64,000 bases of DNA from Candidatus Woesebacteria bacterium (GCA_016432365.1 CP066686.1:128355-192354); one strand, 5' to 3'. Shown: positions 3,150-54,167, counted from the first letter of the stretch. Numbers and translations are program-made. The notes: generated by a model not told the origin, from the letters alone.

Positions 3150-4499
3150 TCAAAATTCAATTTCCTGATTTAAAATGGGAAGACCAATATCTTTTATTCC
3201 CAAATCTGCTGTTATTTTTTTGGAAAGCGCGGTTCTTGAAATATCCTCACCGTGAGTTATAAAAACTTTCTTTACATCTTTAATATGTTTAAGCCAGCTC
3301 ATGAGCTGTCCTTGATCTGCGTGCGAACTCATTGACCGGGTACTGCCAACTGTGGCGTTAACCGTAGTTTTAATTCCATTAATTACAACTTGCTTATCCC
3401 CTTCCTGGAGCGACCTTCCCAATGTTTCCACCCCTTGATACCCGACAATAAATAATCTGGTTGATGCTATCGGCAAATAAAATGCCGCGTGTCCCACAAT
3501 TCTCCCCCCTACCATCATCCCGCTACCCGCCACAATCACTTTGGGCCCGTTTTGACTATGCAAAGCCTGGCTTTCTTCCCATCCGGGAATAACGGTAAGA
3601 CCTGGGAAGTCAAATGGATTTCCGTTTTTAAATTCACTCTGGATATGCGAGTTAAATATTGGTGAATATTTGTTGTAAACCGCTGTCGCTTTTTGCGCCA
3701 TGGGGCCGTCCATGTAAACCGGTGTTTCTGCTAAAACTTTTCTGTCTTTTTTAAGATGCATAATCATATGCAATATTTCCTGAGTCCTGTCCAGAGAAAA
3801 TGAAGGTATAAGAAGAGCCCCCCCCGAAATTTCAATTGCGTTTATTTCCTTTCTGATGTCATAGCTCGGATCACTTTTTGGATGAAGTTTATCGCCGTAA
3901 GTTGATTCCATAACAACCGCATCCGCCTCATTAATTAGTTCGGTTTCCATCAAAAGATCTTCGGGGGTGTTTCCCAGATCCCCGCTAAAAACAATTTTCC
4001 TGATTCCGGAATTTGGATTTTTATCTATGATTTCCACACTCGCCGAACCTAAAATATGTCCAGCATCCCGAAATGTGACTGTAAAATCACCAATTGTTAC
4101 AGGCTTGCGATATTCTGTGGTTTTGAACTGTCCAATTGTCTTTTCTGCTCCCTCTTTGTTGTACAAAAACGGCTTGCCGTCCTGCTTTGCGATTTTGGCG
4201 CTGTCGAGTAATGAAATCTCCGTCAAATCACGGGTGGGCGCAGTCATCCAAATATCCCCGCTGTAACCTTTGGACGAGAGAATTGGCAATCTGCCACAAT
4301 GGTCTAAATGGGCATGGGTCAAAATTGCCCCTGTCAGATTACTTGGATCGTAATCATACGGCTCATAATTCAACTTATCCTCCGCTTCGGGCCCCTGGAA
4401 CATGCCCAAATCAATTAGAATTGACTGCCCCGAGCCTGAGGTTAGCACATACGAAGACCCTGTCACTGTCCCCGCCGCCCCTAAAAATTTAATCATCAT
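3150..4499 (-). CDS. MBL-fold beta-CASP ribonuclease (RNase J / CPSF-like)
   Basis: N-terminal MMIKFLGAAGTVTGS…LTHAHLDHCG metallo-beta-lactamase motif (HxHxDH), followed by a beta-CASP-like region at 449 aa. Confidence 0.7.
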   Translation of the reverse strand: MMIKFLGAAGTVTGSSYVLTSGSGQSILIDLGMFQGPEAEDKLNYEPYDYDPSNLTGAILTHAHLDHCGRLPILSSKGYSGDIWMTAPTRDLTEISLLDSAKIAKQDGKPFLYNKEGAEKTIGQFKTTEYRKPVTIGDFTVTFRDAGHILGSASVEIIDKNPNSGIRKIVFSGDLGNTPEDLLMETELINEADAVVMESTYGDKLHPKSDPSYDIRKEINAIEISGGALLIPSFSLDRTQEILHMIMHLKKDRKVLAETPVYMDGPMAQKATAVYNKYSPIFNSHIQSEFKNGNPFDFPGLTVIPGWEESQALHSQNGPKVIVAGSGMMVGGRIVGHAAFYLPIASTRLFIVGYQGVETLGRSLQEGDKQVVINGIKTTVNATVGSTRSMSSHADQGQLMSWLKHIKDVKKVFITHGEDISRTALSKKITADLGIKDIGLPILNQEIEF

Positions 4500-4591
4500 A
4501 TGTGTGAACGCTCTTTATTAGAGCGTGATCCTTTTCATATATTTACTGTACAACATTATCGTCCCAACATTAAAGGGAGATCTATGGTATA

Positions 4592-5110
4592 ATGGACACT
4601 ATGGGAAGCTTTAACAGAGACGATAGGCAAGGCGGAGGGTTCCGTGGCGGTTTCCGTGGCGGAAGATCTTCTTTTGGCGGCCCCCGAAGCTTCGATAGAG
4701 GTGGAAATCGTGGAGATAGACCCATGTTTAAGACTACTTGTAGTAACTGCGGTAAAGAATGTGAAGTTCCATTTAGACCCACAAATGGCAAACCTGTGTA
4801 CTGTAGTGATTGTTTTGAAAAAATGGGCAACAGAAGCCAAGGCGGAGACACGAGACGCCCCTCAGCTCCCGCTTTTGACCAAAACAAGGCCACACTTGAT
4901 GCAATAAACGTCAAACTGGACAAAATCTTGAGTCTTTTGCAACCTAAAACAGCAACTCAAGTTGTTTCGGAACCGGTTATCAAGACCGAGGTTAAAGAAG
5001 AAGTAAAACCCGCCTCCGTTGAAAACTCCAGCGAGGCAAAGGAAGAAAAAGTTGTAAAAGCTCCAAAGGCTAAAAAAACTGTTAAAAAGTCGGCCTCCAT
5101 TAAAAAATAA
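4592..5110 (+). CDS. RGG-box / zinc-ribbon (CxxC-x17-CxxC) protein with lysine-rich C-terminal tail
   Basis: N-terminus GGGFRGGFRGGRSSFGGPRSFDRGGNRGDR; zinc ribbon CSNCGKECEVPFRPTNGKPVYCSDCF (zf-trcl-like); tail KAPKAKKTVKKSASIKK. TGGTATAAT sits at 4585-4593, so the real start may be the ATG at 4601 (leaderless). Confidence 0.6.
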   Translation: MDTMGSFNRDDRQGGGFRGGFRGGRSSFGGPRSFDRGGNRGDRPMFKTTCSNCGKECEVPFRPTNGKPVYCSDCFEKMGNRSQGGDTRRPSAPAFDQNKATLDAINVKLDKILSLLQPKTATQVVSEPVIKTEVKEEVKPASVENSSEAKEEKVVKAPKAKKTVKKSASIKK

Positions 5111-5125
5111 TTCGCTTCTGAGGTT

Positions 5126-5815
5126 TTACAGAGAAGACTTAAGTTTCATTGAAAATATATAGTTGTTTTTTAAAACCTCGCATGTGTCGGCTTTAACCGT
5201 ATTATCTCCGGAAAATTCGCGATACAACACGCCGGTGTTCTCACTTACCGGAACAAAACAGGAAACGGTTCCATCGCAAGTATAGGAAAAGGCCTTCAAA
5301 TCACCCGTCAGGTTGATTGGTGCTTCTATGCAACTTCCCAGCTGAACTTGCGCCTTATCTTTACTTATTATTTCCATTGTTTGCCAAATTGGAGAATTTC
5401 CGGAAGTGCGCCCTAATGGAATATAAATTTTGGATTCCGTTCTCGAAAATTCATAAGCATCCTTCCACTTTCCGGATGGGTCGGTAAGATTTACCATGTC
5501 ATCCGACTCAAATATGGTATCTATATAAATTAGGTTATAAAGCCTTGGTCTATAATCTTTGTCTATATACGGATACCCTGTTAAAACCAGATATGTATCC
5601 CTGAAATTGAGAGTGATTTCCCGCGTTTCCTGACCCTCAAATTGATTGTTTTTAGAAACTGTGGGCGTTGAGGTCTTTCCCTGCGCAGATTTATTCCCGG
5701 CAGAACCCCTTTTATTATTCATAAACCAAAATATCCCAATTACGAGTAGAGCCAACAATAGCAGTAACAGCCAAAGGTATTTCTTGCCGAATTTCTTATT
5801 ATTCTCTTCTTCCAT
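5126..5815 (-). CDS. membrane-anchored hypothetical protein
   Basis: N-terminal hydrophobic helix (KYLWLLLLLLALLVIGIFWF) followed by a soluble domain; no known motif. Confidence 0.45.
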   Translation of the reverse strand: MEEENNKKFGKKYLWLLLLLLALLVIGIFWFMNNKRGSAGNKSAQGKTSTPTVSKNNQFEGQETREITLNFRDTYLVLTGYPYIDKDYRPRLYNLIYIDTIFESDDMVNLTDPSGKWKDAYEFSRTESKIYIPLGRTSGNSPIWQTMEIISKDKAQVQLGSCIEAPINLTGDLKAFSYTCDGTVSCFVPVSENTGVLYREFSGDNTVKADTCEVLKNNYIFSMKLKSSL

Positions 5816-5973
5816 GTCTTTGGCCTACATCCTACGGCGATTCACCCCAGCTGTCAAGATTAACAAAGTACTTGACCCCACTGGGAATTTCGCACTCACT
5901 TTTCAAAACTATTCGTCTACGTTTCGTGCCAAATTCTGACGGGATCTGCGAGCCCTAAACAGCTCTTGACAAA

Positions 5974-6000
5974 TTAGCACTCGATATACTAGACTGCTAA
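5974..6000 (+). promoter_or_regulatory. CIRCE-like inverted repeat (HrcA-operator-like) upstream of the Hsp20 gene
   Basis: TTAGCACTC-N9-GACTGCTAA differs from the CIRCE consensus TTAGCACTC-N9-GAGTGCTAA at one position. TTGACA lies at 5966-5971 and the RBS AGGGAGGTG at 6011-6019. Confidence 0.55.
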
Positions 6001-6027
6001 TATACACAGAAGGGAGGTGAATATATT

Positions 6028-6456
6028 ATGCAAATAGTAAAATTTAATCCTTTTTCTCCATTCATCAACGATAGATTTTTTTCTACCTTTGATGACGACG
6101 AAAGCTGGCCGACCATTAAAACAAATGACGGCTTGGATGTTTACGAAACAGATTCAGACGTCGTGGTTAAGGCCGCTGTTCCGGGAATTCCATCAGATAA
6201 AGTCGAAGTAACTTTTGAAGACGGTGTTCTTAGAATATCCGCCAAATCTGAAGAAACTAAGGAAGAGAAGGATAAAAAGAAAGTAGTTTACAGACAGCAA
6301 AGAGCGAGCTACTTTGATTACACCACAACACTCCCCAGAGCCGTTGAAGGCAATAAAATTTCAGCAGAGGTAAGTGATGGTGTGGTCACCGTCAAAGCCC
6401 CAATCGCCCAAGAAGCAAAACCAAAAAGAATTGCTGTCAAAGCAAGGGCAAAGTAA
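6028..6456 (+). CDS. Hsp20/alpha-crystallin family small heat-shock protein
   Basis: Alpha-crystallin domain: …DVYETDSDVVVKAAVPGIPSDKVEVTFEDGVLRISAK…; strong RBS present. Confidence 0.85.
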   Translation: MQIVKFNPFSPFINDRFFSTFDDDESWPTIKTNDGLDVYETDSDVVVKAAVPGIPSDKVEVTFEDGVLRISAKSEETKEEKDKKKVVYRQQRASYFDYTTTLPRAVEGNKISAEVSDGVVTVKAPIAQEAKPKRIAVKARAK

Positions 6457-6478
6457 CTACGTCCAAAAGACCAAAAAA

Positions 6479-6505
6479 CCTCGTCTGTGTGACGGGGTTT
6501 TTTGC
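6479..6505 (+). terminator. rho-independent terminator after the Hsp20 gene
   Basis: CCTCGTC-tgtgt-GACGGGG hairpin followed by TTTTTT. Confidence 0.5.
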
Positions 6506-6521
6506 GATTTTGAAAAACCCA

Positions 6522-7127
6522 TCATTTTTTTGTAACTTCCAACATCCACCCGAAGTTTTTTCGTTTACCCGTTGTCCATCTTTTCTCAAATATCCCGACT
6601 GGAATCGGTCTTATCCCCTTACCATACTTCGTCTCGCGAAACCCAATTAGAGGATCCATCAATAAAAACTTTTCGTTGTAGTCATCTTCACTAAACCCAA
6701 AAACAATCGAATAGTGACCGTGCTTTTCACTTTTACCCGCTCTCCACTCGCTTTCTTTCTCTTTCAAAAATTCCGGGCGGTAATCAGTGTCGGGCGCCTG
6801 ATATTCAACCAAACAGAAATGTTTTCTTTGAAGCACACGTTTAATTGCCGGAATATCTGCCTTTGGATGCTCCCTGACACTAAGCCCCTTTCCCCTCAGA
6901 ACTTTAATGATTTTATCTGTGTCTGATGTTCCGTCTTTTGTTGTTCCTAATTCACTGTAGATCTTGTCATAATCTGCACGAATACCAAAAGTTAAAAATA
7001 AAGCCAAGACAACGCTCTCTGCGCAGTCCTCATCCCCCCGCTGGTTTTCTACCGCAACATGCTTAGGCCCTATTACATTTTTCGGTGATGTAAAGAGGTT
7101 CCTCTCTTTCATGCGGATATATGCCAT
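6522..7127 (-). CDS. hypothetical protein, possible papain-like (C39-like) cysteine peptidase
   Basis: Candidate Cys (GDEDCAESVV) and His (HGHYSIVFG) catalytic pair; start trimmed to MAYIRMKER to avoid overlapping the upstream gene. Weak call. Confidence 0.35.
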   Translation of the reverse strand: MAYIRMKERNLFTSPKNVIGPKHVAVENQRGDEDCAESVVLALFLTFGIRADYDKIYSELGTTKDGTSDTDKIIKVLRGKGLSVREHPKADIPAIKRVLQRKHFCLVEYQAPDTDYRPEFLKEKESEWRAGKSEKHGHYSIVFGFSEDDYNEKFLLMDPLIGFRETKYGKGIRPIPVGIFEKRWTTGKRKNFGWMLEVTKK

Positions 7128-16227: not shown

Positions 16228-16238
16228 ATTATATCAAA
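16228..16238 (-). promoter_or_regulatory. extended -10 promoter (TTTGATATAAT) for the intron-containing tRNA
   Basis: The reverse complement of 16228-16238 is TTTGATATAAT, about 12 nt upstream of the tRNA 5' end. Its TG element is also the TGA stop codon of the HNH gene. Confidence 0.45.
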
Positions 16239-16572
16239 TTACACGCTTAACCGGAAGGTTAATCAATCCTCCGTGAATTTCCCGATGGCAATTTGCACAA
16301 ACCAAAATACATTTATTAATTTCTTCCTTAATTTTTTCCCAACTTCTGGTTAATCCCCTTGTAGACAAATTAAAGCTTTTATTCTTTTCGTCTAGATGGT
16401 GGAAATCCAAAGCGCCAATATATCTATCATAACCACAAATCTGGCATTTTCCTCCCTTGAGTTCAACTCCTAACGATTTCAGTCTTCTTCTTCTTTTAGA
16501 TACTGCGAGAACCAAATAGTGAGCTCTGTCTTTATATGTTCTAGTCTCTTTCCTTCGGGTTTTGTTGGGCAT
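16234..16572 (-). CDS. HNH endonuclease (free-standing homing-endonuclease-like)
   Basis: CQICGYDRYIGALDFHHLDEKNKSFN…CANCHREIH gives a CxxC…HH…CxxCH HNH motif; ATG at 16572 (an upstream TTG at 16581 is also possible). Confidence 0.75.
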   Translation of the reverse strand: MPNKTRRKETRTYKDRAHYLVLAVSKRRRRLKSLGVELKGGKCQICGYDRYIGALDFHHLDEKNKSFNLSTRGLTRSWEKIKEEINKCILVCANCHREIHGGLINLPVKRVI

Positions 16573-16602
16573 AACTAACAATAATCTCGAGAGGACTGGA
16601 TG

Positions 16603-17274
16603 TCAAGAAGTTAAACAATTATTTAGGTATTGTCCGCATAGTCCGGGCGTACGGGCGATTACAAAAACCGCCTTGCCGGGTTTGGGGTCCCAACCAAAAG
16701 CGCAGAGGATTGCAGCAATTGCTCCGTCAATATTTACAGGCAGCACTTTACCCTTTTGCTCCAATAGTTCTCTTGCAATTTCTTGGGCCAAATTTATATA
16801 TTCATCTGAGATTCCTTCATCTTTTGCAAGTTTGAAAAGAAGTTGACTTCTGGGGTCTACTTCGTAAATCCTGTGCCCAAATCCAGGTATTCTGTTCCCT
16901 TGCCTCAATTGTTCCTGCACTAAATTTTTAATATTTAATTTTTGATTTTTAATTTTGTACAGTAACCCCATTGCCGGTTCTATCGCCCCCCCGTGTGTAT
17001 CGTTTATTTGTAAAATCCCGGAAGCCACCGACTCGCTAATAGTCTTTCCTTCCTTTGCTGCCCTAATCGTTTCCGTAGCCGATGGGGTTTCTTCTCCATG
17101 ATCTATGGAAATATTGAGGATTGTTTCGAAAACTTTGCCCTGATGAATATCAGGGGCTTTCCCTGACAAGAGCTCAAAAATCATTTGAGAAAAACTTCTT
17201 TCAGGAGCAGTTTCAAGAAGCGATTCCTCTCCAAAATATGGCAAGTCGTTTTTATGTTGTATTGTCTTAGCCAT
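16603..17274 (-). CDS. citrate-synthase-family C-terminal catalytic domain protein (citryl-CoA lyase-like)
   Basis: Citrate synthase signature GFGHRIYEVDPR; DHGEETPSATETIRAAKEG…THGGAIEPAMG aligns with the His-containing catalytic segment; the N-terminal large domain is absent (223 aa). Confidence 0.65.
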   Translation of the reverse strand: MAKTIQHKNDLPYFGEESLLETAPERSFSQMIFELLSGKAPDIHQGKVFETILNISIDHGEETPSATETIRAAKEGKTISESVASGILQINDTHGGAIEPAMGLLYKIKNQKLNIKNLVQEQLRQGNRIPGFGHRIYEVDPRSQLLFKLAKDEGISDEYINLAQEIARELLEQKGKVLPVNIDGAIAAILCAFGWDPKPGKAVFVIARTPGLCGQYLNNCLTS

Positions 17275-17287
17275 ATTTGTAGTTTGC

Positions 17288-18187
17288 TTATTTGCTTATT
17301 TGCTTATTTAGCAACGTCGGTATTTCATCAAAATTCTCGGCAACCAAAATTCCGGCTTCTTTCAAAATCTTTCTTTTTTCGGAAGGAAGACCGCGCTTCC
17401 CTTCTATTATAGCTCCCGCATGACCGAATTGAACATCGCTTGGTAAACCTGTCGTGAATTCCCCCGCAATGTAGGCTACAACCGGTTTTTTGATTTTCCC
17501 TTTCCTTACATATTCCGCAATTTTTTCTTCATACTTCCCTCCAAGTTCTCCAAAAATTACCGAGGCTTTCGTATCCTTATCTTGTTCTAATTCCATTAAA
17601 AAGTCCGTAAAGTCGGTACATATTATTCTGTCTCCACCAATGCCCACAGCCCAGGAAACACCCATTCCGTTGTTTTTAAGAATTGAACCAAGCTCGGAAG
17701 TCATTCCGCCGGACTTGGATATAACTCCTATATTTCCCGCAACAAAAACCCTCTCCGGTGTTCCTCCACCGATTTGACCAAGTTTGATTTTGTTCTTGGG
17801 AGAAATAATCCCTACCGAACTTGGACCGATTATTGTTACTCTTTTTTTCTTGGCAAGCGCAAACATTTCAGCAGCATCCTTTGTAGGTACTTTTTCGGCA
17901 CCGATTAATATGAATTTTATTCCGGCATCGATCGCCTCAATAACCGCCCCTTTGGTAAATAGGGGCGGAACAAACTGTACGGTTCCGTCAACCTTTCCGA
18001 CTTTTTTCAGCGCCTCTTTTACACTGTTGAATATCGGCACTCCTTGTACTTCCTGCCCACCTTTACCCGGAGTTACTCCGGCCACGATCTTTGTTCCATA
18101 ACCCAGCATGTGCGCCAAAGAAGTTGAACCTTCCGCTCCTGTTAAACCTTGTCCTATAAATTTAGAGTTACTTTTTGGTAGATGCAT
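17288..18187 (-). CDS. succinyl-CoA synthetase alpha-like subunit (CoA-binding; GHAGA phosphohistidine loop)
   Basis: IGQGLTGAEGSTSLAHMLGYGTKIVAGVTPGKGG and QFGHAGAIIEG; start trimmed to MHLPKSN (ATG at 18187). Confidence 0.75.
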   Translation of the reverse strand: MHLPKSNSKFIGQGLTGAEGSTSLAHMLGYGTKIVAGVTPGKGGQEVQGVPIFNSVKEALKKVGKVDGTVQFVPPLFTKGAVIEAIDAGIKFILIGAEKVPTKDAAEMFALAKKKRVTIIGPSSVGIISPKNKIKLGQIGGGTPERVFVAGNIGVISKSGGMTSELGSILKNNGMGVSWAVGIGGDRIICTDFTDFLMELEQDKDTKASVIFGELGGKYEEKIAEYVRKGKIKKPVVAYIAGEFTTGLPSDVQFGHAGAIIEGKRGLPSEKRKILKEAGILVAENFDEIPTLLNKQISK

Positions 18188-19316
18188 ATTTTTTTGCCAA
18201 ACGGGACATAATTTTAGCCGATTCGGCGATTGATGTCTTTTCTCCATAAAGATGTAAATCAAAATCTTTAACTTTTTTAAGCATGTCAAAAGCTTCTTTG
18301 TCGTGTGGCCCTCCCCGGCGTATAACTACTGGGTAATCCGGTTTGGGATTCATCTTTCTCAATGATTCTATAAACCCGGTAAGTGTCTCAAAGATGTTGG
18401 TAAAGTTGGCAATAGCCCCAACCACCCAAAGACCATTTATTCCTTTTTTAGATAGCACAATCTTGGTGAGTTTTGCCACTTTTTCTTTTGAAGGATTGCC
18501 GGAATATTCAGTATAATTTGCAGGGGCCCCACCCGCTTTGACCAATGCGTCCATCGCAGTTAATGATGCTCCTCCGCCTGAGGCAAGAACCGCAATGTCC
18601 CCAGGTAAATCAAAATAAGTTGAACCGGCAGTTCCCCTATAATCACCCTCATCGATTTTCTTGGCGGCAATTTCCCTTCTTGTTGGACTGCGACCTGGAA
18701 TGGACCTGGGTGAATAAGTCCATTCTTTATGGCGTCCAATAGCTGAATCGTCCAACTTAACCTTAGCATCAAGCGCATAGACATTTCCTTTTTCATCAAT
18801 AACCAAGGGATTAATTTCCAGTAGCAACAAGTCGTTATCCAAGAACGACTTGATTAATTTAGGTAATATTTTTTGAATTTTCCCAGGTAGCGCAACTTTT
18901 GTTTTTTTGGGGTTAAGGGTGTCTAGGGGAACAATTTTCGATTCCCTTGTCTCAATTCCGGTTCCTCCCGATTCTGAAAATGTTAAGACAGGACCGCGAC
19001 TTCCTGTGTCATATGACAATGCCAAATAGAATTCGCGTCTGTGTTTGATTATTTCTTCTGCAAGTATTTCTGTAACAACTTCTCCGTTTATTTTTTTGCC
19101 CAAAAGTTTTTTAACCTTAGATTTGAATTCTTCCTTTTTGTTTACAAAAATAATTCCACCGGCATCTTTTCTCTTACCGGAAAGGACCTGAGCTTTAAGA
19201 ACCATCGGGAATTTAATTCTGACCTTATTTGTAGCCGAATCCACAATCTGAAACGGGGGAACTTTTATACCTTTATCCGAAAGAAGTTTCTTACCTTCAA
19301 ATTCGTATAGAATCAT
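18168..19316 (-). CDS. succinyl-CoA synthetase beta-like ATP-grasp subunit
   Basis: SucC/AclB-like ATP-grasp N-terminus (MILYEFEGKKLLSDKGIKVP…) with a C-terminal ligase-CoA domain. Confidence 0.7.
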   Translation of the reverse strand: MILYEFEGKKLLSDKGIKVPPFQIVDSATNKVRIKFPMVLKAQVLSGKRKDAGGIIFVNKKEEFKSKVKKLLGKKINGEVVTEILAEEIIKHRREFYLALSYDTGSRGPVLTFSESGGTGIETRESKIVPLDTLNPKKTKVALPGKIQKILPKLIKSFLDNDLLLLEINPLVIDEKGNVYALDAKVKLDDSAIGRHKEWTYSPRSIPGRSPTRREIAAKKIDEGDYRGTAGSTYFDLPGDIAVLASGGGASLTAMDALVKAGGAPANYTEYSGNPSKEKVAKLTKIVLSKKGINGLWVVGAIANFTNIFETLTGFIESLRKMNPKPDYPVVIRRGGPHDKEAFDMLKKVKDFDLHLYGEKTSIAESAKIMSRLAKKYASTKK

Positions 19317-19429
19317 GCCAATATCATACCAGAATATTGATCCGAAGCAACCACCGACAACTTAAAGACGTTGTTAATCCAAATAGTCCTGTAGCCACGC
19401 CCTTCCGAAGCCTTGACGAAGGAGGGTTT

Positions 19430-20509
19430 TTAATCTAAGTAGTCTTGTAACTTTTTCCTTCTACTTGGATGTTTAAGTTTTCGGAGAGCCTTGGCTTCAA
19501 TCTGGCGGATACGTTCGCGGGTGACACCAAAGACCTTACCCACCTCTTCAAGTGTCATTGCTTTGCTACCTTCCAAACCAAATCTAAGTTTAAGAACTTT
19601 GGCTTCCCTCTCAGACAGTGTTCCCAGAACTTCTTCCAAATGATCTTTGAGAAGTTGTTTACTTGCCTGATCCACCGGGGAAAGCGCATTTTCGTCAGGA
19701 ATAAAGTCTCCCAAGAAACTTTCCTGATCTTCTCCCACAGGGGCTTCCAGGGAAGTTGTTTCTTGGGCAATTTTAAATATTTCGCGAACCCTGTCTCCGT
19801 CCAACTCAAGCTCTCCTCCGATTTCCTCGGGTGTGGGCTCACGTCCAAGCTCCTGCATAAGTCTTCTGGAAGTGCGGTAAATCTTGTTAATAGTCTCGAC
19901 CATGTGGACCGGAATGCGGATGGTTCTTGCCTGGTCGGCAATGGCTCGGGTTATGGCCTGTCTAATCCACCAGGTTGCGTAAGTTGAGAATTTGTAGCCT
20001 TTTCTCCAATCATACTTCTCTACTGCACGAATTAGCCCCTGGTTTCCTTCCTGGATAAGATCCAGAAGTGACAAACCACGTCCAATATATTTCTTTGCTA
20101 TGGAGACAACTAAACGCAAATTGCTCTCAGTTAGCTTATCTTTTGCTCTTTTGTCGGCTTTTTCGTATCTTTTAGCAAGTTCAACCTCGTCTTCCGCCAA
20201 AAGAAGAGGAACGCGTCCAATTTCTCTAAGATACTGTCTAACAGGGTCTGTGGACTCAATTCCTTCAAGTTTAGTAAGAAGTTCAATTTCTCGATCAAGT
20301 TTTTCTTTGGCCTTTTCGTCACTTTCGATTTCCCCGGGAGTTACCGATTCAAAGACGTCGATACCTTCACCAAGAAGTTTTTCGTAGAGCTCGTCGAGCT
20401 CAATTACCCTTTCTTCGGCATCAGGGAAAACATCCAAAATTTCATCTTGGGTTAAAAATCCCTGGTCGCGTCCTTTTTTAATTAAGTCTAAAACAGGTTT
20501 TCGTATCAT
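19430..20509 (-). CDS. rpoD: RNA polymerase sigma factor RpoD (sigma-70)
   Basis: Regions 2-4: [54 protein letters not shown]; …[20 protein letters not shown]. Confidence 0.9.
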
Positions 20510-23122: not shown

Positions 23123-23238
23123 TTACGTTGCGTCTGCACTCAACAAAATTGCAAAGCAATTTTGAGAGGAAGAGCAGACTGTAAAAAGCGAAGTTCCGAT
23201 TTTATCGGAACGAAGCAGTAAAGTCTTGCTCTGACGAG

Positions 23239-23322
23239 CGGTGGGGACAGGATTCGAACCTGCGAGGCCTTTCGACCACACGATTTCCAATCGTGCTCCT
23301 TGAACCACTCGGACACCCCACC
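23239..23322 (-). tRNA. tRNA-Ser(GGA)
   Basis: Minus-strand sequence GGTGGGGTGTCCGAGTGG…ACGATTGGAAATCGT…long variable arm…GGTTCGAATCC…CCCCACCG. Promoter TTTGATATAATACGCTT immediately upstream. Confidence 0.8.
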
Positions 23323-23361
23323 TTGTAAAGCGTATTATATCAAAGAAGGAAGGTTTCGAAG

Positions 23362-25365
23362 TTATCTAACTTTCTTACTCATTATCTTCTCTTTTTCTTC
23401 TTTTCTCAGTCCTTTTAGAAGAATTAACGCCTCATGGGTGTCTACCGATTCTAAAAAGGTTGATGTCGGAATCACAAGCTTCTGATCTGGGAAAAGAATT
23501 ACTGCCTGCCCACCCAAGGGCGCCCTCTTTTTGTTGGATTTACCTCCGGAATCATATTCAGAAAACCAACCCGGAGCAACATAATCAGCATCTGGTGTAG
23601 TCATAAAGCCTCCGCCCAACATATGCCCTCCCGCAACGACATCGGATCTTAATAATGCTTTTCTCCTTGCCTGCACGAGACCTCTAAAAGGATCGAACTC
23701 ACTTCCGGAACTGGCTAGGTGATCCATAAGTAAAAATTCATATGAAGCCTTTCCGAAATCCAAATACATTAGAGATTGGTTAAGGTACAAAGGCACTTTC
23801 TTTGAAAACGCCCTATAAATATAAGTTCCCGGATATAAACGAGTTTTTCTTTCTCTTTCAAAACGAACCTTCCCCCTACTGTCTTTAATTTTTATGACAT
23901 TTCCCAAAACATCTTTCTTCCATCTGTCGTCCAACAAACTGGAGGACATCATAAAACCCAAAAGCCTGTCTTTATTGACAATCGGAGAGAGGTCATTAAT
24001 CATCCTATCTAGTACATAATCACGGCTATACATTTTAGCTACATCAGGATCTATAAAATGCCTCATTACAAGCCCGTATTCAAACGGATTTCCTTCAATT
24101 TGTTTGATAATTTCAAACAACTTCTCTTTATCTCTTTTCTCAAAACTGGTACTCGAATATCTGGCACCCGCCAGAAGAAACACCATTCTGGGGATACTGC
24201 CGGAGTCCTCAAATTTCCATTTGAAGTTTTCAAACATGGGAGTGTCAAACTGATTGTCTTTGATTTTTGTCCTCGAACTTTTCCTGTCAAATTCGGCTTT
24301 AGGTTTTCTTGATCTATCTATTATTTCTTCAATAAGTTCACCCGTCTTCTGCAGTTTTTCAGTTTTGTCTAACAATTTGGCTGCCTCATACAAAATTTCT
24401 CCTTTGTTAAATCCATACGACAACCAAGCGTATTCTCCATTTTTCCCGTCACCCTTTTTTCTTTCAGGTTGATTGAGAATCAACTGGACTCCCGGAGTTA
24501 GCGTTGGTCCTTTTGCCATTTTAGACAAATACGTATCGGGTCTATTGGGGTCGTTTCCTTTTGTGGTCCCGTTTGCAAAAAGAAGATGTCCTTTTTCCCT
24601 CCCCTCCTTAAGATCAAACACCATTTCCTTGGACACACCGGCCCTGTGATGCCAATGTCCGCCGCCGGCACCGTCAACATCTCCTCTGTGGCTGACATAT
24701 TCCCAAAGGCGGTTCCTTTGGGCCCCCAATGGATTCACTTCATCCGACCCGCCGCCACCCGGAGCGTGATAAACAAGTTGTGTGTAAGTCACACCGTTAT
24801 TTAAGTGAATAATTAACCTGCCTCCGTTATACAACACCTTCAGCTCTGTTCCATCAGGTTGGGTAAATCCGTCAGCAATCAGTTGAACTACATCAATTCC
24901 TAAGTATCTGTCTCCCCACCCCTCGTGACCATCAAAAGTTCCAACCATACAAATAATCTTTCCGGTTTTTACATATGGTTCAATAATTTTTTTGGCCGCC
25001 TTTATCTGATTGCTAAACCCTATCTCGACATTGTTGATGTGATCAGGAATACCGGGATTAGCCCCCTCAATGAAATCTCCCATTATAATTCCATACGTAT
25101 GGGGCTCCTCAAGTTTAGCTAACAGTTCATTGACCTTACTTTTGTCAGTTTGTACCGCAAACAAGTGAGTATCAGATATCGGGATTATTCTTACGGGCTC
25201 ATTAAACCCTACCGAAAGCTCTACCTTTTCCTGCAACAAGGTCATGTCTTCTTCGATTTCTTGCTTGAGTTGATGAACGGTGTCAAGTTTGATTTGAATT
25301 TTATCAAAAGCGGGGCGATCTTTATCTACAAATCGAAGTTTGATCTCCGGCATCTTTTCTTTCAT
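23362..25365 (-). CDS. large calcineurin-like metallophosphoesterase-domain protein
   Basis: IIPISDTHLF…IIMGDFIEG…GGGHWHHRAGV metallophosphatase motifs; the ~350 aa C-terminal extension has no known motif. Confidence 0.55.
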   Translation of the reverse strand: MKEKMPEIKLRFVDKDRPAFDKIQIKLDTVHQLKQEIEEDMTLLQEKVELSVGFNEPVRIIPISDTHLFAVQTDKSKVNELLAKLEEPHTYGIIMGDFIEGANPGIPDHINNVEIGFSNQIKAAKKIIEPYVKTGKIICMVGTFDGHEGWGDRYLGIDVVQLIADGFTQPDGTELKVLYNGGRLIIHLNNGVTYTQLVYHAPGGGGSDEVNPLGAQRNRLWEYVSHRGDVDGAGGGHWHHRAGVSKEMVFDLKEGREKGHLLFANGTTKGNDPNRPDTYLSKMAKGPTLTPGVQLILNQPERKKGDGKNGEYAWLSYGFNKGEILYEAAKLLDKTEKLQKTGELIEEIIDRSRKPKAEFDRKSSRTKIKDNQFDTPMFENFKWKFEDSGSIPRMVFLLAGARYSSTSFEKRDKEKLFEIIKQIEGNPFEYGLVMRHFIDPDVAKMYSRDYVLDRMINDLSPIVNKDRLLGFMMSSSLLDDRWKKDVLGNVIKIKDSRGKVRFERERKTRLYPGTYIYRAFSKKVPLYLNQSLMYLDFGKASYEFLLMDHLASSGSEFDPFRGLVQARRKALLRSDVVAGGHMLGGGFMTTPDADYVAPGWFSEYDSGGKSNKKRAPLGGQAVILFPDQKLVIPTSTFLESVDTHEALILLKGLRKEEKEKIMSKKVR

Positions 25366-25446
25366 TTCAACCTCATTATAGAAAACAAAATATTCTTTTC
25401 AAGTATTGACTTAATCTGTGAAAAGTCGTAAAAATTAGGACAGCTC

Positions 25447-25989
25447 TTACCGAAGTTCCTCCGCCTTTTTTAGTATTTCCTTTTCCCTTGTGAACGAAAG
25501 TAGTTTATATGCTTCATCATATGAAAGCCATGCAACCTCTGAGGTTTCGCCGTCAAATCCTTCCGGCAAGTCGCGCAAATACTCCATTAAATAAAAGGTC
25601 ACGAACTTCATAATTTTTCCCCGAACCGGATGTGTATAAAAAAATGTCGAAGTGCCAATCTTATCAATTATTTTTGCCTCAACCCCACCTTCTTCTCTAA
25701 CTTCTCTCAAGGCGGTTTCTCTGAGAGTCTTTTCGTCTGCTTTTTTGACTCCGCTTGCCATAGGACCCGGAATCCCATCACTTTCGTCATCCAGCCAACC
25801 CTTTGGTAATCGCCAGAAAACATCCGGAAACATTTTGCTGGGCATTGTTGCCGCCACGAGCCAAAGAATTTTTAATTTTTCATTTTTAATTTTTAATTTT
25901 TTATAGACCACCCCACCTGAAGAAAACTCTCTCCCAATCGAAGATTTTGTAGTTAAAACTGTTGTTTTTTGTTGTGTGTCTTTTCCCAC
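25447..25989 (-). CDS. NUDIX hydrolase
   Basis: Nudix box LRETALREVREEGGVEAKI. Confidence 0.7.
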   Translation of the reverse strand: MGKDTQQKTTVLTTKSSIGREFSSGGVVYKKLKIKNEKLKILWLVAATMPSKMFPDVFWRLPKGWLDDESDGIPGPMASGVKKADEKTLRETALREVREEGGVEAKIIDKIGTSTFFYTHPVRGKIMKFVTFYLMEYLRDLPEGFDGETSEVAWLSYDEAYKLLSFTREKEILKKAEELR

Positions 25990-26411
25990 TCTTTCAGTAT
26001 ATCTTTTGCGCTTTTCAACATTTCCTTTTCCCTTTTAATAGTTACTTTTTTCATGGCTTGGGCGTGTTCCAACCAAACAAAATCTGTAAAACCTATCGCA
26101 TCAGCCCCACCGGCCTTGAGAATCATTAAGTAATAATAGAATTTTTGAGGAATCGATTTCGCATTTACTATTGTCGTCCCGGTAGCGCGTCCGGCTTCTT
26201 CCAAAACTCTCGTAGCCATCCCTGCTTGTTCTCCGGTTAAACGTATAACTGCGCGGACAGAAGATTCACCCTTTCTTACGGTCACCTTCGGCAACTCCCA
26301 ATCTCCGTCCTCTTTTTGTTTGACCACAAACCACTGCCGCTTACCACGGTTATCTCTAAAAATAATGGCGATTCCTATTAATACTTGTTGATTTTGTTTT
26401 GGTGTAATCAT
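25953..26411 (-). CDS. hypothetical protein (possibly a degenerate NUDIX-like fold)
   Basis: Start trimmed to MITPKQ (ATG at 26411) so it does not run into the tRNA-Ser gene; weak RLTGEQAGMATRVLEEAG resemblance. Confidence 0.4.
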   Translation of the reverse strand: MITPKQNQQVLIGIAIIFRDNRGKRQWFVVKQKEDGDWELPKVTVRKGESSVRAVIRLTGEQAGMATRVLEEAGRATGTTIVNAKSIPQKFYYYLMILKAGGADAIGFTDFVWLEHAQAMKKVTIKREKEMLKSAKDILKEWEKTHNKKQQF

Positions 26412-26451
26412 ATTAATTATTCCTGTGATACAGGAGTCGTCCCGCACTGAG

Positions 26452-26533
26452 CGGAGGATACAGGAGTCGAACCTGTTATCCCTTTCGAGAATTGGTTTTC
26501 GAAACCAACGCGTTACCGTCCCGCCCATCCTCC
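26452..26533 (-). tRNA. tRNA-Ser(CGA)
   Basis: Minus-strand sequence GGAGGATGG…TTGGTTTCGAAAACCAA…long variable arm…AGGTTCGACTCCTGTATCCTCCG. Confidence 0.75.
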
Positions 26534-26537
26534 AGTG

Positions 26538-26611
26538 TGTACCCGGTGAGACTCGGACTCACAATCTTCAGATCCGCAATCTGATGCTTAATCCAATTAA
26601 GCTACGGGTAC
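26538..26611 (-). tRNA. tRNA-Arg(GCG), atypical T-loop (C55)
   Basis: GTACCCGTAGCTTAATTGGATTAAGCATCAGATTGCGGATCTGAAGATTGTGAGTCCGAGTCTCACCGGGTACA. Cloverleaf is good except that the T-loop reads TCCGAGT. Confidence 0.6.
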
Positions 26612-26671
26612 TTATAAAGCACCCTGCGCTCGCCAACTGGCTAAAGCTACGGGTACGAGTCTACTAGCTAT

Positions 26672-27226
26672 TTAACTATTTCCCGGCAGCTTTTTTCCTA
26701 CCCAGTCCGTAAATTTATCGATTCCGGATGCGGGCACCTCTTCAAGAGGTAGATAGGCAGATATCTCTTTTGTGATTTTTTCTTTCACTGACGGCTCTAT
26801 CACCATCTCGATTCTTCCCGGGATTAAACCTGTATCAATAACCAAGAGTTCCTGATCAAATCTTTTGGTAAACCAAAATCTATTTAAAAAACTCCACGAT
26901 GTCAGGTTGTTGCCGATTTTTATTCCTTTACTGGTTATTTTGTATTCGATTCTTTCCGGCTCCACCGTAGATAGAACATAATACAAAAAAACAAGTGCAA
27001 TAATTAAAAGTACAGGCATAAACCCTTCGGCAAAAAAAAGTACCAATCCCAAAATCCCAGCCATCGCAAAAACTGTTACAAAAAACTGCTTGTCACGCCT
27101 TTTAAACGGACGGGCCGGAGCGGACCAGCTAACCAATTCTCTCTCGGGTTCGCGCCTAACAACCACAGCCTGTGGCTGACTTTCTTGATCTTTGGCAGGA
27201 TCCATATAACTCGTAGTATACCTCAA
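26672..27226 (-). CDS. membrane protein, hypothetical
   Basis: Two TM helices (FFVTVFAMAGILGLVLFF…PVLLIIALVFLYYVL). Confidence 0.45.
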   Translation of the reverse strand: MRYTTSYMDPAKDQESQPQAVVVRREPERELVSWSAPARPFKRRDKQFFVTVFAMAGILGLVLFFAEGFMPVLLIIALVFLYYVLSTVEPERIEYKITSKGIKIGNNLTSWSFLNRFWFTKRFDQELLVIDTGLIPGRIEMVIEPSVKEKITKEISAYLPLEEVPASGIDKFTDWVGKKLPGNS

Positions 27227-27273
27227 ATGACAGTTCCGTTCCAGAGGCTGTAAACTGATATAATACGCTTGTT

Positions 27274-27358
27274 GGAGGATATGCCGAGCGGCTAAGGCAA
27301 AGGTTTGCTAAACCTTGACCACGCAAGTGGTCGGTGGGTTCGACTCCCTCATCCTCCG
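27274..27358 (+). tRNA. tRNA-Ser(GCU)
   Basis: GGAGGATATGCCGAGCGGCTAAGGCAAAGGTTTGCTAAACCTT…long variable arm…GGTTCGACTCCCTCATCCTCCG. Promoter CTGATATAATACGCTT sits directly upstream. Confidence 0.8.
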
Positions 27359-27522
27359 CTCGTCAGAGTTAGACCTTTACGCTTCGTTTCTGCGTAGCAG
27401 AAACTTTGCTATTTTTGGTCTACTCTTCCTCTCAAAATTGCTTTGCAATTTTGGAAGAAGAAACGGCAAAGCGGAAAGCAAAAGCGATAGCGATCTGCGA
27501 ACAGTATAGGAAATTTCGACGA

Positions 27523-27607
27523 GGAGAGGTCGCATAGCGGTCTAGTGCAGCGGTTTACTAAACCGCCGTATCGCAAGATACCGAGAGTTCGAATCTCTCC
27601 CTCTCCG
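27523..27607 (+). tRNA. class II (long variable arm) tRNA with apparent ACU anticodon; identity uncertain
   Basis: GGAGAGGTCGCATAGCGGTCTAGTGCAGCGGTTTACTAAACCGC…CCGAGAGTTCGAATCTCTCCCTCTCCG. Acceptor, D, T and variable arms fold well. Anticodon stem is GCGGT/ACCGC and the loop TTACTAA places ACT at positions 34-36; discriminator is G. Confidence 0.5.
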
Positions 27608-27633
27608 CACTGATATAATTGATTGTCCAACGA

Positions 27634-27715
27634 GGTGGGCGGGCAGGACGGTAATGCGCGGGTCTTGAAAACCCGTGAGCGAAAGCTCTAACAGGTTCGA
27701 CCCCTGTGCCCACCG
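27634..27715 (+). tRNA. tRNA-Ser(UGA)
   Basis: GGTGGGCGG…CGGGTCTTGAAAACCCG…long variable arm…AGGTTCGACCCCTGTGCCCACCG. CTGATATAAT lies 15 nt upstream. Confidence 0.75.
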
Positions 27716-27809
27716 CTTTCACCCGCCGAAGCCTAGAGCGAAAGAGGGCTTCGGTTGGGTTTCAGCGGTCGAAGACCGCCAGATACCTGCGGTGTGTGCC
27801 GCAAAAAAA

Positions 27810-33026: not shown

Positions 33027-33390
33027 GGGGACGATCGGTTTCGACGAGAGCTCTTTAACAAAACTGCAAGCGGACTTTTATCTGTAGTCCTTAAAAATGG
33101 GTTAAAAAACTAAAGCTAAATCTTACGATTCAGCTCCCCGTTTCCAGATGGCATTCGCCTAAGGAATGGGTGTCCTTTAATTTGATTCTCGACCGAATTA
33201 GATGGGCATAAACCTGTTCGAGATGCTGTATAAATCTTATGATTTAGAGATTTATAAATAAGCCAATTACATCTTACCTTGAAATTTCTTGTTGATTAGA
33301 TAAGTTCAAGGGAAATTAAAAAATCAAATAAGCTTGTAGATGTTTTGTTTTAATGTTTTTCGGACGCGGGTTCGATTCCCGCCGTCTCCA
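33027..33390 (+). ncRNA. ssrA: tmRNA (SsrA)
   Basis: 5' GGGGACGATCGGTTTCGACG pairs with 3' CGTCTCCA. T arm is GGACGCGGGTTCGATTCCCGC. A candidate tag ORF reads …GCTAAATCTTACGATTCAGCTCCCCGTTTCCAGATGGCATTCGCCTAA (…MAFA*). Sits downstream of smpB. Confidence 0.8.
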
Positions 33391-33452
33391 CTCACATTCG
33401 TCGTTGCGCCATCGGTAATCGATAGTGCTCGGGTACTTCGTGTTTTGCACAC

Positions 33453-50515: not shown

Positions 50516-51580
50516 ATGGAACAACACGCGATACCTCAAAACATAAGTTCGTACCAATTCAGGCTGGTTGGGGACATGACCCTTAAACAATTCTTCCAAC
50601 TTGCAGGAGGACTTTTGGTAGCTCTTATCTTTTATTCGGCCCCACTTGTGGGGATAATTAAATGGCCTTTTGTAATTATCTCCGCAATCTTAGGTGTTGC
50701 TTTGGCGTTCCTCCCTCTTGAAGAACGCCCTCTGGAAAAGTGGATTTTTGCATTTTTTAGGGCAATTTATGCTCCTACGGAGTTCTTTTGGAAAAAAATA
50801 ACCATTCCTCCTAAAATATTCCAGGACGAGCCGGCTGTTCCTGTTGCTACCCCCGGGCCCCAACAGCAAGCCGTCGAACAGTATTTAGCCTCTCCTGGAC
50901 AAAAAACAGAGCCCACCAACAAACTTGAAAATGCAGAAAAAGGGTTTTTTGCAACCTTGATGGGGATTGCTTCCGGCCTTGTTTCCCCGACAAAAACTCC
51001 CGCAGTTGTCCCTGTCCCACAGCAACCTGAGCCTGTAGCTAAAACCGAAATGGCCATCCCCCAAAACATACCGGTTAAAGTTCCTGCTCAGATGCCGCAT
51101 CTTGTTGTAGAAGAAAAGCGTCAGGAACCGGTTTACACCTCCCCTCAAATATCAGCAACGCAAGTAAACCCGAGTATTGTGGGAAATGAGATGGTTTCAA
51201 CAACCGCAGCCATTTTCTCGGTAGACGCGGCTCCCCCCAACCCCCCAACATATCCAAATGTGGTAGTAGGGCAAGTGGTGGATGCTGAAAGAAAAATAAT
51301 AGAAGGAGCCATTATGGAAATAAGAGACTCTTCCGGGCGCCCGGTACGTGCCTTAAGAAGTAACAAGGTGGGGCATTTTATTACCATTACTCCCCTGGAA
51401 AACGGAAAATATCAAATTGTCACTGAAAAAGAAGATCATGAATTTACTCCCGTGTCATTTGAGGCGGTAGGGCAAATCATTCCACCGATTTTGGTTCAGG
51501 GAAGAAGAATTGTTCAAGAAGTAATGCCAACAGCAGCTATTCCAACCCAAACTCAAGCTAACGTTCCTGCAATGCAATAA
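50516..51580 (+). CDS. PrgI/VirB3-like two-TM protein with Pro-rich linker and C-terminal carboxypeptidase-regulatory-like beta domain
   Basis: N-terminus FRLVGDMTLKQFFQLAGGLLVALIFYSAPL…FLPLEERPLEKWIFAFF (two TM, PrgI-like); C-terminus GQVVDAERKIIEGAIMEIRDSSGRPVRALRSNKVGHFIT…GKYQIV. Confidence 0.4.
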   Translation: MEQHAIPQNISSYQFRLVGDMTLKQFFQLAGGLLVALIFYSAPLVGIIKWPFVIISAILGVALAFLPLEERPLEKWIFAFFRAIYAPTEFFWKKITIPPKIFQDEPAVPVATPGPQQQAVEQYLASPGQKTEPTNKLENAEKGFFATLMGIASGLVSPTKTPAVVPVPQQPEPVAKTEMAIPQNIPVKVPAQMPHLVVEEKRQEPVYTSPQISATQVNPSIVGNEMVSTTAAIFSVDAAPPNPPTYPNVVVGQVVDAERKIIEGAIMEIRDSSGRPVRALRSNKVGHFITITPLENGKYQIVTEKEDHEFTPVSFEAVGQIIPPILVQGRRIVQEVMPTAAIPTQTQANVPAMQ

Positions 51581-51582
51581 TC

Positions 51583-52269
51583 ATGATTAATTTACCCAAA
51601 ATTCCATATTTGTCGGTTCCCGATAAGCCTATTTTGTCCACAACTCAGGAACATTTGCCCATAGCCGATGTAACTAACGATGTGGTTATTTACAAAGACG
51701 GCGGCGCCGCACTTGTAATGGAATCGACATCCCTTAACTTCGGACTTTTGAGCGAAAAAGAGCAGGCTGCCGTAATTACCGCCTACGCTGCCATGATTAA
51801 CTCACTTTCTTTTTCGGTACAGATTGTTGTTAGGACTCAAAGAAAAGACATCAGTAGTTACATAAGCTTTCTGGATGAACAGGCTGCCAAAATAACACAC
51901 CCGCTTCTTGCACGTCTTATGCGTGAATACAAAGGGTTTATACTCGACTCGGTTAAAAAGAAGAACGTTTTGGGAAAAAGATTTTTTGTTGTGCTTTACC
52001 TGTCCCCTCTTGAACTGGGGGTTGGTAAATCGATAGCATCCTTAACCAAACGCGGGGTTACACTTCCTTTCCCAAAATCGTATGTTATTAAAAAAGCAAA
52101 GATTACTTTGTATCCAAGACGTGACCACTTGATCCGCCAGGCCGGAAGACTCGGTATAAAGTTCAGGCAATTAACAACCGCGGAACTAATAGACCTATAT
52201 TTTACAGTTTACAATCCCGAAAAACCTGCCGTTAAGAAAGAGCCGGAAGTGATACTAGAGCACAAGTAA
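51583..52269 (+). CDS. VirB4/TraC N-terminal-domain-like protein (split VirB4?)
   Basis: LPIADVTNDVVIYKDGGAALVMESTSLNFGLLSEKEQAAVITAYAAMINSLSFSVQIVV resembles the N-domain of VirB4/TraC-type ATPases; the ATPase gene follows directly. Confidence 0.35.
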   Translation: MINLPKIPYLSVPDKPILSTTQEHLPIADVTNDVVIYKDGGAALVMESTSLNFGLLSEKEQAAVITAYAAMINSLSFSVQIVVRTQRKDISSYISFLDEQAAKITHPLLARLMREYKGFILDSVKKKNVLGKRFFVVLYLSPLELGVGKSIASLTKRGVTLPFPKSYVIKKAKITLYPRRDHLIRQAGRLGIKFRQLTTAELIDLYFTVYNPEKPAVKKEPEVILEHK

Positions 52270-52309
52270 TTAAGAGTTAAGAATTTAAAATTCAGAATTT
52301 TAGAAAAAA

Positions 52310-54163: not shown

Positions 54164-54167
54164 TTAA

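Follow-up and report, generated by a model that had tools for sequence, protein, structure and literature searches.

A putative citryl-CoA synthetase/citryl-CoA lyase operon with a tail-less lyase in a Candidatus Woesebacteria bacterium

Does a bacterium belonging to the candidate phyla radiation (CPR), a group usually described as lacking a tricarboxylic acid (TCA) cycle, encode its own system for the cleavage of citrate? The question is raised by three adjacent genes in a 64,000-nucleotide (nt) stretch of the genome of a Candidatus Woesebacteria bacterium (GCA_016432365.1, CP066686.1:128355-192354; the whole stretch is hereafter called the window). Their present annotation is fragmentary, the NCBI names being 'acetate--CoA ligase family protein' for a beta-type large subunit, 'CoA-binding protein' for an alpha-type small subunit and 'citryl-CoA lyase' for a 223-amino-acid (aa) protein of the citrate synthase family (Table 1). 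The evidence supports their provisional identification as one operon of the citryl-CoA synthetase (CCS)/citryl-CoA lyase (CCL) type, i.e. a putative ATP-citrate lyase (ACL) in separate polypeptides, in which the beta and alpha subunits probably form citryl-CoA at the expense of ATP, and the 223-aa protein would cleave it to acetyl-CoA and oxaloacetate. This identification rests on homology and fold, on catalytic and citrate-binding residues that have been conserved, and on an operon that is itself conserved and whose genes are under purifying selection. An earlier note, made from the sequence alone, had proposed the same decomposition into CCS and CCL (a split, ACL-like system), which is now supported by the citrate site of the beta subunit, the insertions of the alpha subunit and the match of the lyase to the CCL structure 6hxp.

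The beta subunit matches ATP-grasp_2 (PF08442; 4.7e-27, 95 bits), in agreement with the ATP-grasp subunit described in the earlier note, and Citrate_bind (PF16114; 1.1e-23, 84 bits, the cutoff being 26.8 bits). In control searches the latter domain was found in CcsA of Hydrogenobacter thermophilus (49 bits) and not in E. coli SucC, which matches Ligase_CoA (PF00549) instead. No PF00549 match is present in the window protein, and its substrate loop reads IANFTN rather than FGGI. Its best solved relative is the large subunit of H. thermophilus CCS (6hxq_B, 1.9e-49), followed by AclB of Chlorobium limicola (5e-40) and the beta subunit of succinyl-CoA synthetase (SCS; 6.6e-31), and its score with the NCBIfam model of SCS beta subunits (TIGR01016) is 182 against a cutoff of 376. 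As aligned with human ACLY (chain 3mwd_A), residues G273, N304-F305-T306 and R333-R334 are identical to G309 (in EYSG), N346-F347-T348 (in IANFT) and R378-R379 (in RRGGP), residues that reportedly form the citrate site, with G309, N346, T348 and R379 as its ligands, as Sun et al. are said to have described in 2010. The same positions read DIGG / ANNT / RRNGP in H. thermophilus CcsA and DxGGGA / FGGI(T/V)R / VR(L/V)xG in SCS beta subunits; the CcsA, AclB, Ccl and ACL-module references were rebuilt from the aligned regions of a PDB search and are incomplete at their ends. In a neighbour-joining tree of 169 beta-type sequences, the window beta belongs to a clade of 98 members with EYSG / ANFT / RRxGP, C. 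limicola AclB included, to which the Aquificae CcsA form the adjoining branch (bootstrap 58), while the combined ACL/CCS clade stands apart from the SucC-type proteins with a bootstrap of 81-82. Both the phylogenetic placement and the inspection of AclB citrate-binding residues, which had been suggested as checks, thus point to an enzyme of the ACL/CCS kind.

The alpha subunit contains the domains CoA_binding (3.2e-21), Ligase_CoA and Succ_CoA_lig, as well as the motifs GxTGxxG (residues 12-21), FGHAGA (residues 254-259) and GELGG, so that the CoA-binding subunit with a GHAGA loop reported earlier is confirmed. It aligns without gaps to residues 714-793 of human ACLY, with DVQFGHAGA facing EVQFGHAGA, and H256 is predicted to be the phosphorylated residue; the phosphohistidine of ACLY is His760 (PMC10115795). 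A 3-aa insertion before the catalytic histidine is common to CcsB and ACLY and is absent from SCS alpha subunits, which show a 3-residue gap and MGHAGA, and a second insertion, 'IGG', is common to CcsB and likewise absent from SCS alpha. Its identity with archaeal SCS alpha subunits amounts to 40-50%, and the NCBIfam model of SCS alpha (TIGR01019) gives 284 against a cutoff of 353.

The 223-aa protein matches Citrate_synt (1.1e-29) over model positions 137-346 of 357, and thus represents the whole CCL core module, which is more than the small citrate synthase domain supposed earlier. Among solved structures it is closest to H. thermophilus CCL (6hxp; 1.7e-38, 135 bits, about 35% identity), with much weaker matches to citrate synthases (2e-16 or weaker, at most 63 bits) and to the lyase modules of ACL (3e-14, 56 bits). 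Its AlphaFold2 model has a predicted local distance difference test score (pLDDT) of 94.7, and a Foldseek search with the model returned 6hxp with a template modelling (TM) score of 0.93 and a root-mean-square deviation of 1.9 A, ACL lyase modules with TM 0.86-0.91, and citrate and methylcitrate synthases with TM 0.62-0.74. The functional residues of E. coli citrate synthase GltA (numbered as in PDB 4G6B) are H229, H264, H305, R314, D362, F383, R387 and R407 (FEMS Microbes 2026 survey, PMC13147460), and seven of these eight are kept, as H59, H94, H134, R142, D183, F204 and R208. All seven are invariant across 52 homologues, and the first catalytic histidine, H94, is retained where the ACL lyase module has Phe. 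The GFGHRIY..DPR signature noticed earlier lies at residues 131-142, and both catalytic His regions described with it are present as the invariant H94 and H134, together with D183.

A further feature sets this lyase apart from most of its relatives. Thirty of 32 other CCL-like proteins share a conserved C-terminal tail, EE..(E/Q)KP(M/F/Y)R(K/R), where the basic pair aligns with the GltA segment 'ARPR' containing R407; the exceptions are L061, truncated at a contig end, and L037, in which the tail is truly missing. In citrate synthases this arginine (R421' in pig, R407' in E. coli) is given to the active site of the neighbouring subunit and binds a carboxylate of oxaloacetate. The tailed set comprises a second CPR group (mainly Daviesbacteria), DPANN archaea, WOR-3, Phycisphaerales, Aminicenantes, Zixibacteria and Thermoplasmata. 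The alignment of H. thermophilus CCL with the window protein stops at residue 222, in a chain of 256-268 residues, and the H. thermophilus protein runs on for about 35 residues. The tail is absent, by comparison, from all 12 loci of the group to which the window lyase belongs (group 1; L003-L023, Microgenomates lineages), and from all 120 best database homologues (P0001-P0120; median length 221 aa). Group 1 is monophyletic in a neighbour-joining tree (bootstrap 98) and differs from the tailed proteins at otherwise conserved positions, with G for R/H at position 15, I for R at position 70 and K for S at position 74; Ile70 also occurs in the lyase module of C. limicola ACL, and the unrelated short sequence of L037 shows the same combination of I70, K74 and no tail. 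No tail hidden by a frameshift was found in three frames of the 240 nt downstream of the window gene, nor any compensating C-terminal extension of the alpha subunit, whose C-termini are alike in tail-less and tailed groups. As the tail with its inter-subunit arginine is missing, the binding of oxaloacetate or citryl-CoA or the quaternary arrangement of these proteins must differ from those of tailed CCLs.

The module is conserved well beyond the window. A scan of one genome per species yielded 80 loci with lyase relatives (taken with at most 6 kb of sequence on each side), 56 of which also contain beta and alpha homologues, in tight collinear beta-alpha-lyase order in 46 cases. The taxa concerned include Woesebacteria, Daviesbacteria, Woykebacteria, Harrisonbacteria, Woesearchaeota (DPANN), WOR-3, Phycisphaerales, Stahlbacteria and Methanomassiliicoccales, and more than 1300 lyase homologues are present in the database. 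The module, which the earlier note had regarded as unexpected in a reduced genome, is therefore widespread in CPR and DPANN organisms. That note had also taken the genome to be TCA-less; no TCA gene was recognised among about 45 ORFs scanned in the 64 kb. The flanking genes vary, with dnaG-rpoD upstream only in close Woesebacteria and with the module of one relative inside a mur/dcw cluster; since the flanks are not conserved, the three genes can be regarded as a conserved unit. When compared with the two nearest relatives, the three genes show ratios of nonsynonymous to synonymous substitution rates (dN/dS) of 0.04-0.13 (0.12 for the lyase), and all of them are under strong purifying selection.

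Several related loci show other arrangements. Locus L053 (4270-5982) contains one 565-aa open reading frame (ORF) that, like AclA, unites an alpha subunit and a CCL module, here with a tail, and that belongs to a separate clade with betas of about 525 aa (DTSGNP / GVASQE / RLGGN); the C-terminal part of the beta of this type in the WOR-3 locus L031 is similar to a 4Fe-4S dicluster domain, though its 23 bits do not reach the Pfam cutoff. A different pairing of synthetase and lyase is seen in L039, L040, L041 and L055 (about 3750-6720 in each), which come from Stahlbacteria, Methanomassiliicoccales and relatives: the tailed CCL-like gene is preceded there by genes for a SucC-type beta, with a Ligase_CoA domain and the loop FGGISR, and for an alpha of the SCS type that lacks the CCS/ACL insertions. 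Many 'TPA_asm' loci, L002, L004, L006 and L007 among them, have typical CPR gene content under titles such as 'uncultured Gammaproteobacteria bacterium' or 'Pseudomonadales', which look like wrong taxonomic labels on third-party assemblies of metagenome-assembled genomes.

From this evidence we infer the substrate, activity, direction, complex formation and physiological role of the system as follows. The ATP-grasp fold of the beta subunit would bind ATP and its C-terminal domain would hold the citrate, while His256 of the alpha subunit would be phosphorylated and would hand its phosphate to citrate. CoA bound to the alpha subunit may then attack the citryl phosphate to give (3S)-citryl-CoA, which the 223-aa protein, with the predicted catalytic set H94/H134/D183, would split into acetyl-CoA and oxaloacetate. 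External or host-derived citrate would most likely serve as a source of acetyl-CoA and C4 acids for a fermentative organism.

A number of observations speak against this identification. All three proteins remain under the curated NCBIfam cutoffs for SCS beta, SCS alpha and CCL, the best model for the lyase, citryl-CoA lyase NF004869, giving 160 bits where the cutoff is 212. The best solved relatives of the alpha subunit over its whole length are archaeal SCS alpha subunits (236 bits versus 214 for CcsB). The lyase ends about 15 residues past R208, without the tail and without a counterpart of GltA R407, and at positions 15 and 70 it has also lost basic residues that are conserved elsewhere. 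No gene for a citrate transporter, malate dehydrogenase, aconitase or the like was found with Pfam among about 45 ORFs of the window or among the called genes at four homologous places. The trees are neighbour-joining trees only, and as bootstraps within the ACL/CCS clade are mostly below 30, membership of that clade is claimed for the beta subunit and no sister group.

Three rival explanations have to be weighed. The same enzymes may operate in reverse, joining acetyl-CoA and oxaloacetate into citryl-CoA and converting thioester energy into ATP, in which case they would form an ATP-yielding citrate synthase for substrate-level phosphorylation in a fermenter. Moller et al. reportedly described in 1987 an ATP-citrate lyase of Desulfobacter postgatei working oxidatively with a gain of ATP. 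The cleavage reaction of ACL amounts to -8.0 kJ/mol at 1 mM (PMC13147460), which is near equilibrium, and therefore the same proteins could run backwards; moreover, ACLY produces citryl-CoA in vitro out of acetyl-CoA and oxaloacetate (PMC10115795), and Microgenomates are fermenters obtaining acetyl-CoA via pyruvate:ferredoxin oxidoreductase (PMC7143001). However, one oxaloacetate would be spent for each ATP gained, nothing points to citrate being exported or used further, and Microgenomates already have an ADP-forming acetyl-CoA synthetase for this task (PMC7143001). The sequence itself carries no directional signal, and operation in reverse is considered unlikely.

Similarly improbable is a different hydroxy acid as the substrate (malate, citramalate or 2-methylcitrate), the acyl-CoA of which would be made and cleaved to acetyl-CoA and glyoxylate, pyruvate or the corresponding products; the earlier note, too, had suggested that another acyl-CoA might be used. 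This idea is kept alive by the missing tail arginine, which in citrate synthase binds a carboxylate of oxaloacetate, and gains from the group-1-specific G15, I70 and K74 and from the SucC-type betas adjoining CCL-like genes in L039-L041 and L055, by which the lyase family is paired with more than one type of synthetase. It is not favoured, however, as all citrate-contacting positions of ACLY are identical in the beta subunit, including R379, which would be pointless without a third carboxylate; the Citrate_bind score of the window protein exceeds that of the characterised CcsA, and the oxaloacetate/citrate ligands H59, H134, R142 and R208 of the lyase are among the residues invariant in 52 sequences. 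Far less probable than either is an ordinary SucCD pair beside a decayed fragment of citrate synthase, although close homologues are annotated as 'Succinyl-CoA synthetase, beta subunit' and 'Citrate synthase', and the alpha subunit has the SCS-like whole-length matches mentioned above. The missing Ligase_CoA signature and FGGI loop of the beta subunit and the scores under the SCS equivalog cutoffs contradict it, as do the complete CCL module with a confidently predicted fold, the invariant active site, the low dN/dS and the numerous homologues of the lyase, and the explanation by a fragment or decaying remnant was rejected. In the earlier note it had been considered that the beta/alpha pair might cluster within ordinary SCS and that the third protein might lack its catalytic Asp and His; neither is the case. 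A citrate-cleaving CCS/CCL-type operon thus remains the preferred identification.

Compared with the characterised systems, the window module is closest in organisation to CCS/CCL of H. thermophilus, with which it shares three separate polypeptides of the same domain content, the best solved relatives of its beta subunit and lyase, the first catalytic His of Ccl and the CcsB insertions. It differs in the ACL-type loops of its beta subunit (EYSG / ANFT / RRGGP versus DIGG / ANNT / RRNGP), in a lyase about 35 residues shorter with G15, I70 and K74 in place of R, R and S of Ccl, and in its host, a small-genome CPR fermenter, H. thermophilus being an autotroph using the reductive TCA cycle. With AclB/AclA of C. 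limicola (6hxj) and human ACLY it has in common the citrate-binding residues of the beta subunit, the DVQFGHAGA loop of the alpha subunit, Ile70 and the general fold of the lyase, and a gene order (beta, alpha, lyase) that equals the domain order of ACL. The ACL lyase module, unlike the window protein, has Phe in place of H94 and is only weakly similar in sequence, and the fused alpha-lyase junction of AclA (and of L053) corresponds in the window to a TAA stop codon followed by a short spacer. SucC/SucD (EC 6.2.1.5) belong to the same superfamily and share two subunits, the ATP-grasp, the CoA-binding Rossmann fold and the phosphohistidine loop, but differ in having Ligase_CoA and FGGI where the window beta has Citrate_bind and ANFT, and in lacking the two alpha insertions. 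Citrate synthase (EC 2.3.3.1; about 360-430 aa) resembles the third protein in the fold of its C-terminal half and in the seven active-site residues; the window protein has neither the N-terminal region of about 200 residues nor the R407 segment, and its sequence and fold scores with citrate synthases (TM at most 0.74) are well below those with CCL.

The kind of system is already known. CCS and CCL were reportedly characterised by Aoshima in 2004, and 2019 saw the release of the structures 6hxp and 6hxq. When the literature was searched for CPR taxa in connection with citrate lyase, succinyl-CoA synthetase or citrate synthase, the one relevant result was a 2022 bioRxiv preprint, in which CPR and DPANN sequences annotated as SCS or citrate synthase are monophyletic with CCS and CCL, and the third gene already bears a citryl-CoA lyase name at NCBI. 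The CPR metabolism papers checked make no mention of a citrate-cleavage module. Not found described are the tail-less Microgenomates subfamily and its union of ACL-type loops in beta and alpha with a lyase that is unfused and keeps the His. It is conceivable, though rather doubtful, that the tail-less lyase and the ACL-type beta and alpha subunits form a non-covalent three-subunit ATP-citrate lyase, or that a module deprived of the tail was thereby retuned, either towards a different substrate or towards citrate synthesis with a yield of ATP; as part of the same doubtful proposal, the three-subunit version might be an unfused relative of the AclA ancestor, or its arginine might have been lost because activity of the lyase depends on docking to the synthetase. 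Were this joint proposal true, it would add a previously unrecognised energy or carbon node to the fermentative CPR bacteria.

A conserved and selected citrate-cleavage operon would imply that citrate, C4 acids or acetyl-CoA are taken up by these organisms, or exchanged between them and their hosts or neighbours. The presence of ACL-type loops, for the substrate as well as for the phosphohistidine, beside an unfused lyase that keeps the first histidine of citrate synthase represents the arrangement expected near the fusion by which CCS/CCL would have become ACL. Whether the lyase module of ACLY has a catalytic or an allosteric function is disputed (PMC10115795), and a natural system with a separate lyase might bear on this dispute. 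The tail-less subfamily is in effect a natural deletion of an active-site element.

The features of the locus are listed in Table 1. All three ORFs lie on the minus strand at the limits given in the earlier note, which had correctly described them as co-directional. The rpoD and dnaG genes are situated upstream of the beta gene on the same strand. No paralogues of the three genes occur within the window. The GC content of the locus (0.41-0.43) equals the window average, and a foreign origin, against which this speaks, was dismissed.

Table 1. Coordinates of the predicted genes, junctions and functional codons of the citrate-cleavage locus in the window.
Feature	Position	Strand	Basis or accession
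ccsA/aclB-like gene, ATP-grasp and citrate-binding large (beta) subunit, 382 aa	18168..19316	-	Pfam, PDB match, tree; QQG41863.1
ccsB-like gene, CoA-binding phosphohistidine small (alpha) subunit, 299 aa	17288..18187	-	Pfam, insertions; QQG41862.1
ccl-like gene, citryl-CoA-lyase-type protein of the citrate synthase family, 223 aa, tail-less	16603..17274	-	Sequence and fold; QQG41861.1
Overlap of beta 3' end and alpha 5' end, 20 nt	18168..18187	-	Sequence reading
Spacer from alpha stop to CCL-like start, 13 nt	17275..17287	-	Sequence reading
Intergenic region between rpoD and the beta gene, 113 nt	19317..19429	-	Sequence reading
Codons of predicted citrate-binding residues of beta: G273 (18498-18500); N304-F305-T306 (18399-18407); R333-R334 (18315-18320)	18315..18500	-	Alignment to human ACLY
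Codon of predicted phosphohistidine H256 of alpha, in DVQFGHAGA	17420..17422	-	Ungapped alignment to ACLY
Codons of CCL-like active-site residues H59, H94, H134, R142, D183, F204, R208	16651..17100	-	Mapping onto E. coli GltA

The start of the alpha gene deserves comment. Its ORF in the longest reading extends over 17288-18289, from a TTG at 18289, and the ATG at 18187 is the supported start, as it keeps GxTGxxG, equals that of QQG41862.1 and fits homologues of 297-300 aa. The Logan, ENA and JGI/IMG calls (window 18118-18187; L082:5056 and L083:1805) begin the gene 3' of GxTGxxG and give proteins of 274-277 aa; apparently these starts avoid an overlap with the beta gene, and the 299-aa NCBI call is the plausible one. 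The resulting overlap is consistent with translational coupling, and the same overlapping beta/alpha layout is called in relatives L084-L086. A scan of 16400-19600 for promoter and terminator consensus sites found them no commoner than in shuffled sequence, with none convincing between rpoD and the beta gene, and for this reason no transcription unit is claimed.

Downstream of the lyase, an HNH-endonuclease-like ORF of 115 aa (16234-16581, minus strand) begins 21 nt past the lyase stop. It looks like a local insertion, since it is absent from this place in all related loci. Elsewhere in the window, dnaN (57737-58864, minus strand), dnaA (59130-60524, minus strand) and yidC (61598-62413, plus strand) occur together, and the window probably includes the region of the chromosomal replication origin, near 60.5-61.5 kb. 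A type IV secretion-like cluster (50516-57122, plus strand) encodes a PrgI-family protein, a TraG/VirB4-type P-loop ATPase (52310-54163) and two large proteins without a Pfam match (984 aa and 228 aa). Within 4.5 kb (23238-27716), ARAGORN calls five tRNA-Ser genes and one tRNA-Arg gene, among them a tRNA-Ser with the unusual anticodon ACT (27523-27608; Rfam tRNA score 53 bits), while the calls at 27274 and 27638 have no Rfam confirmation. A tmRNA gene is located at 33027-33393 (plus strand; Rfam 140 bits), and its tag is predicted by ARAGORN as GHKPVRDAV*, lacking the usual ...LAA end.

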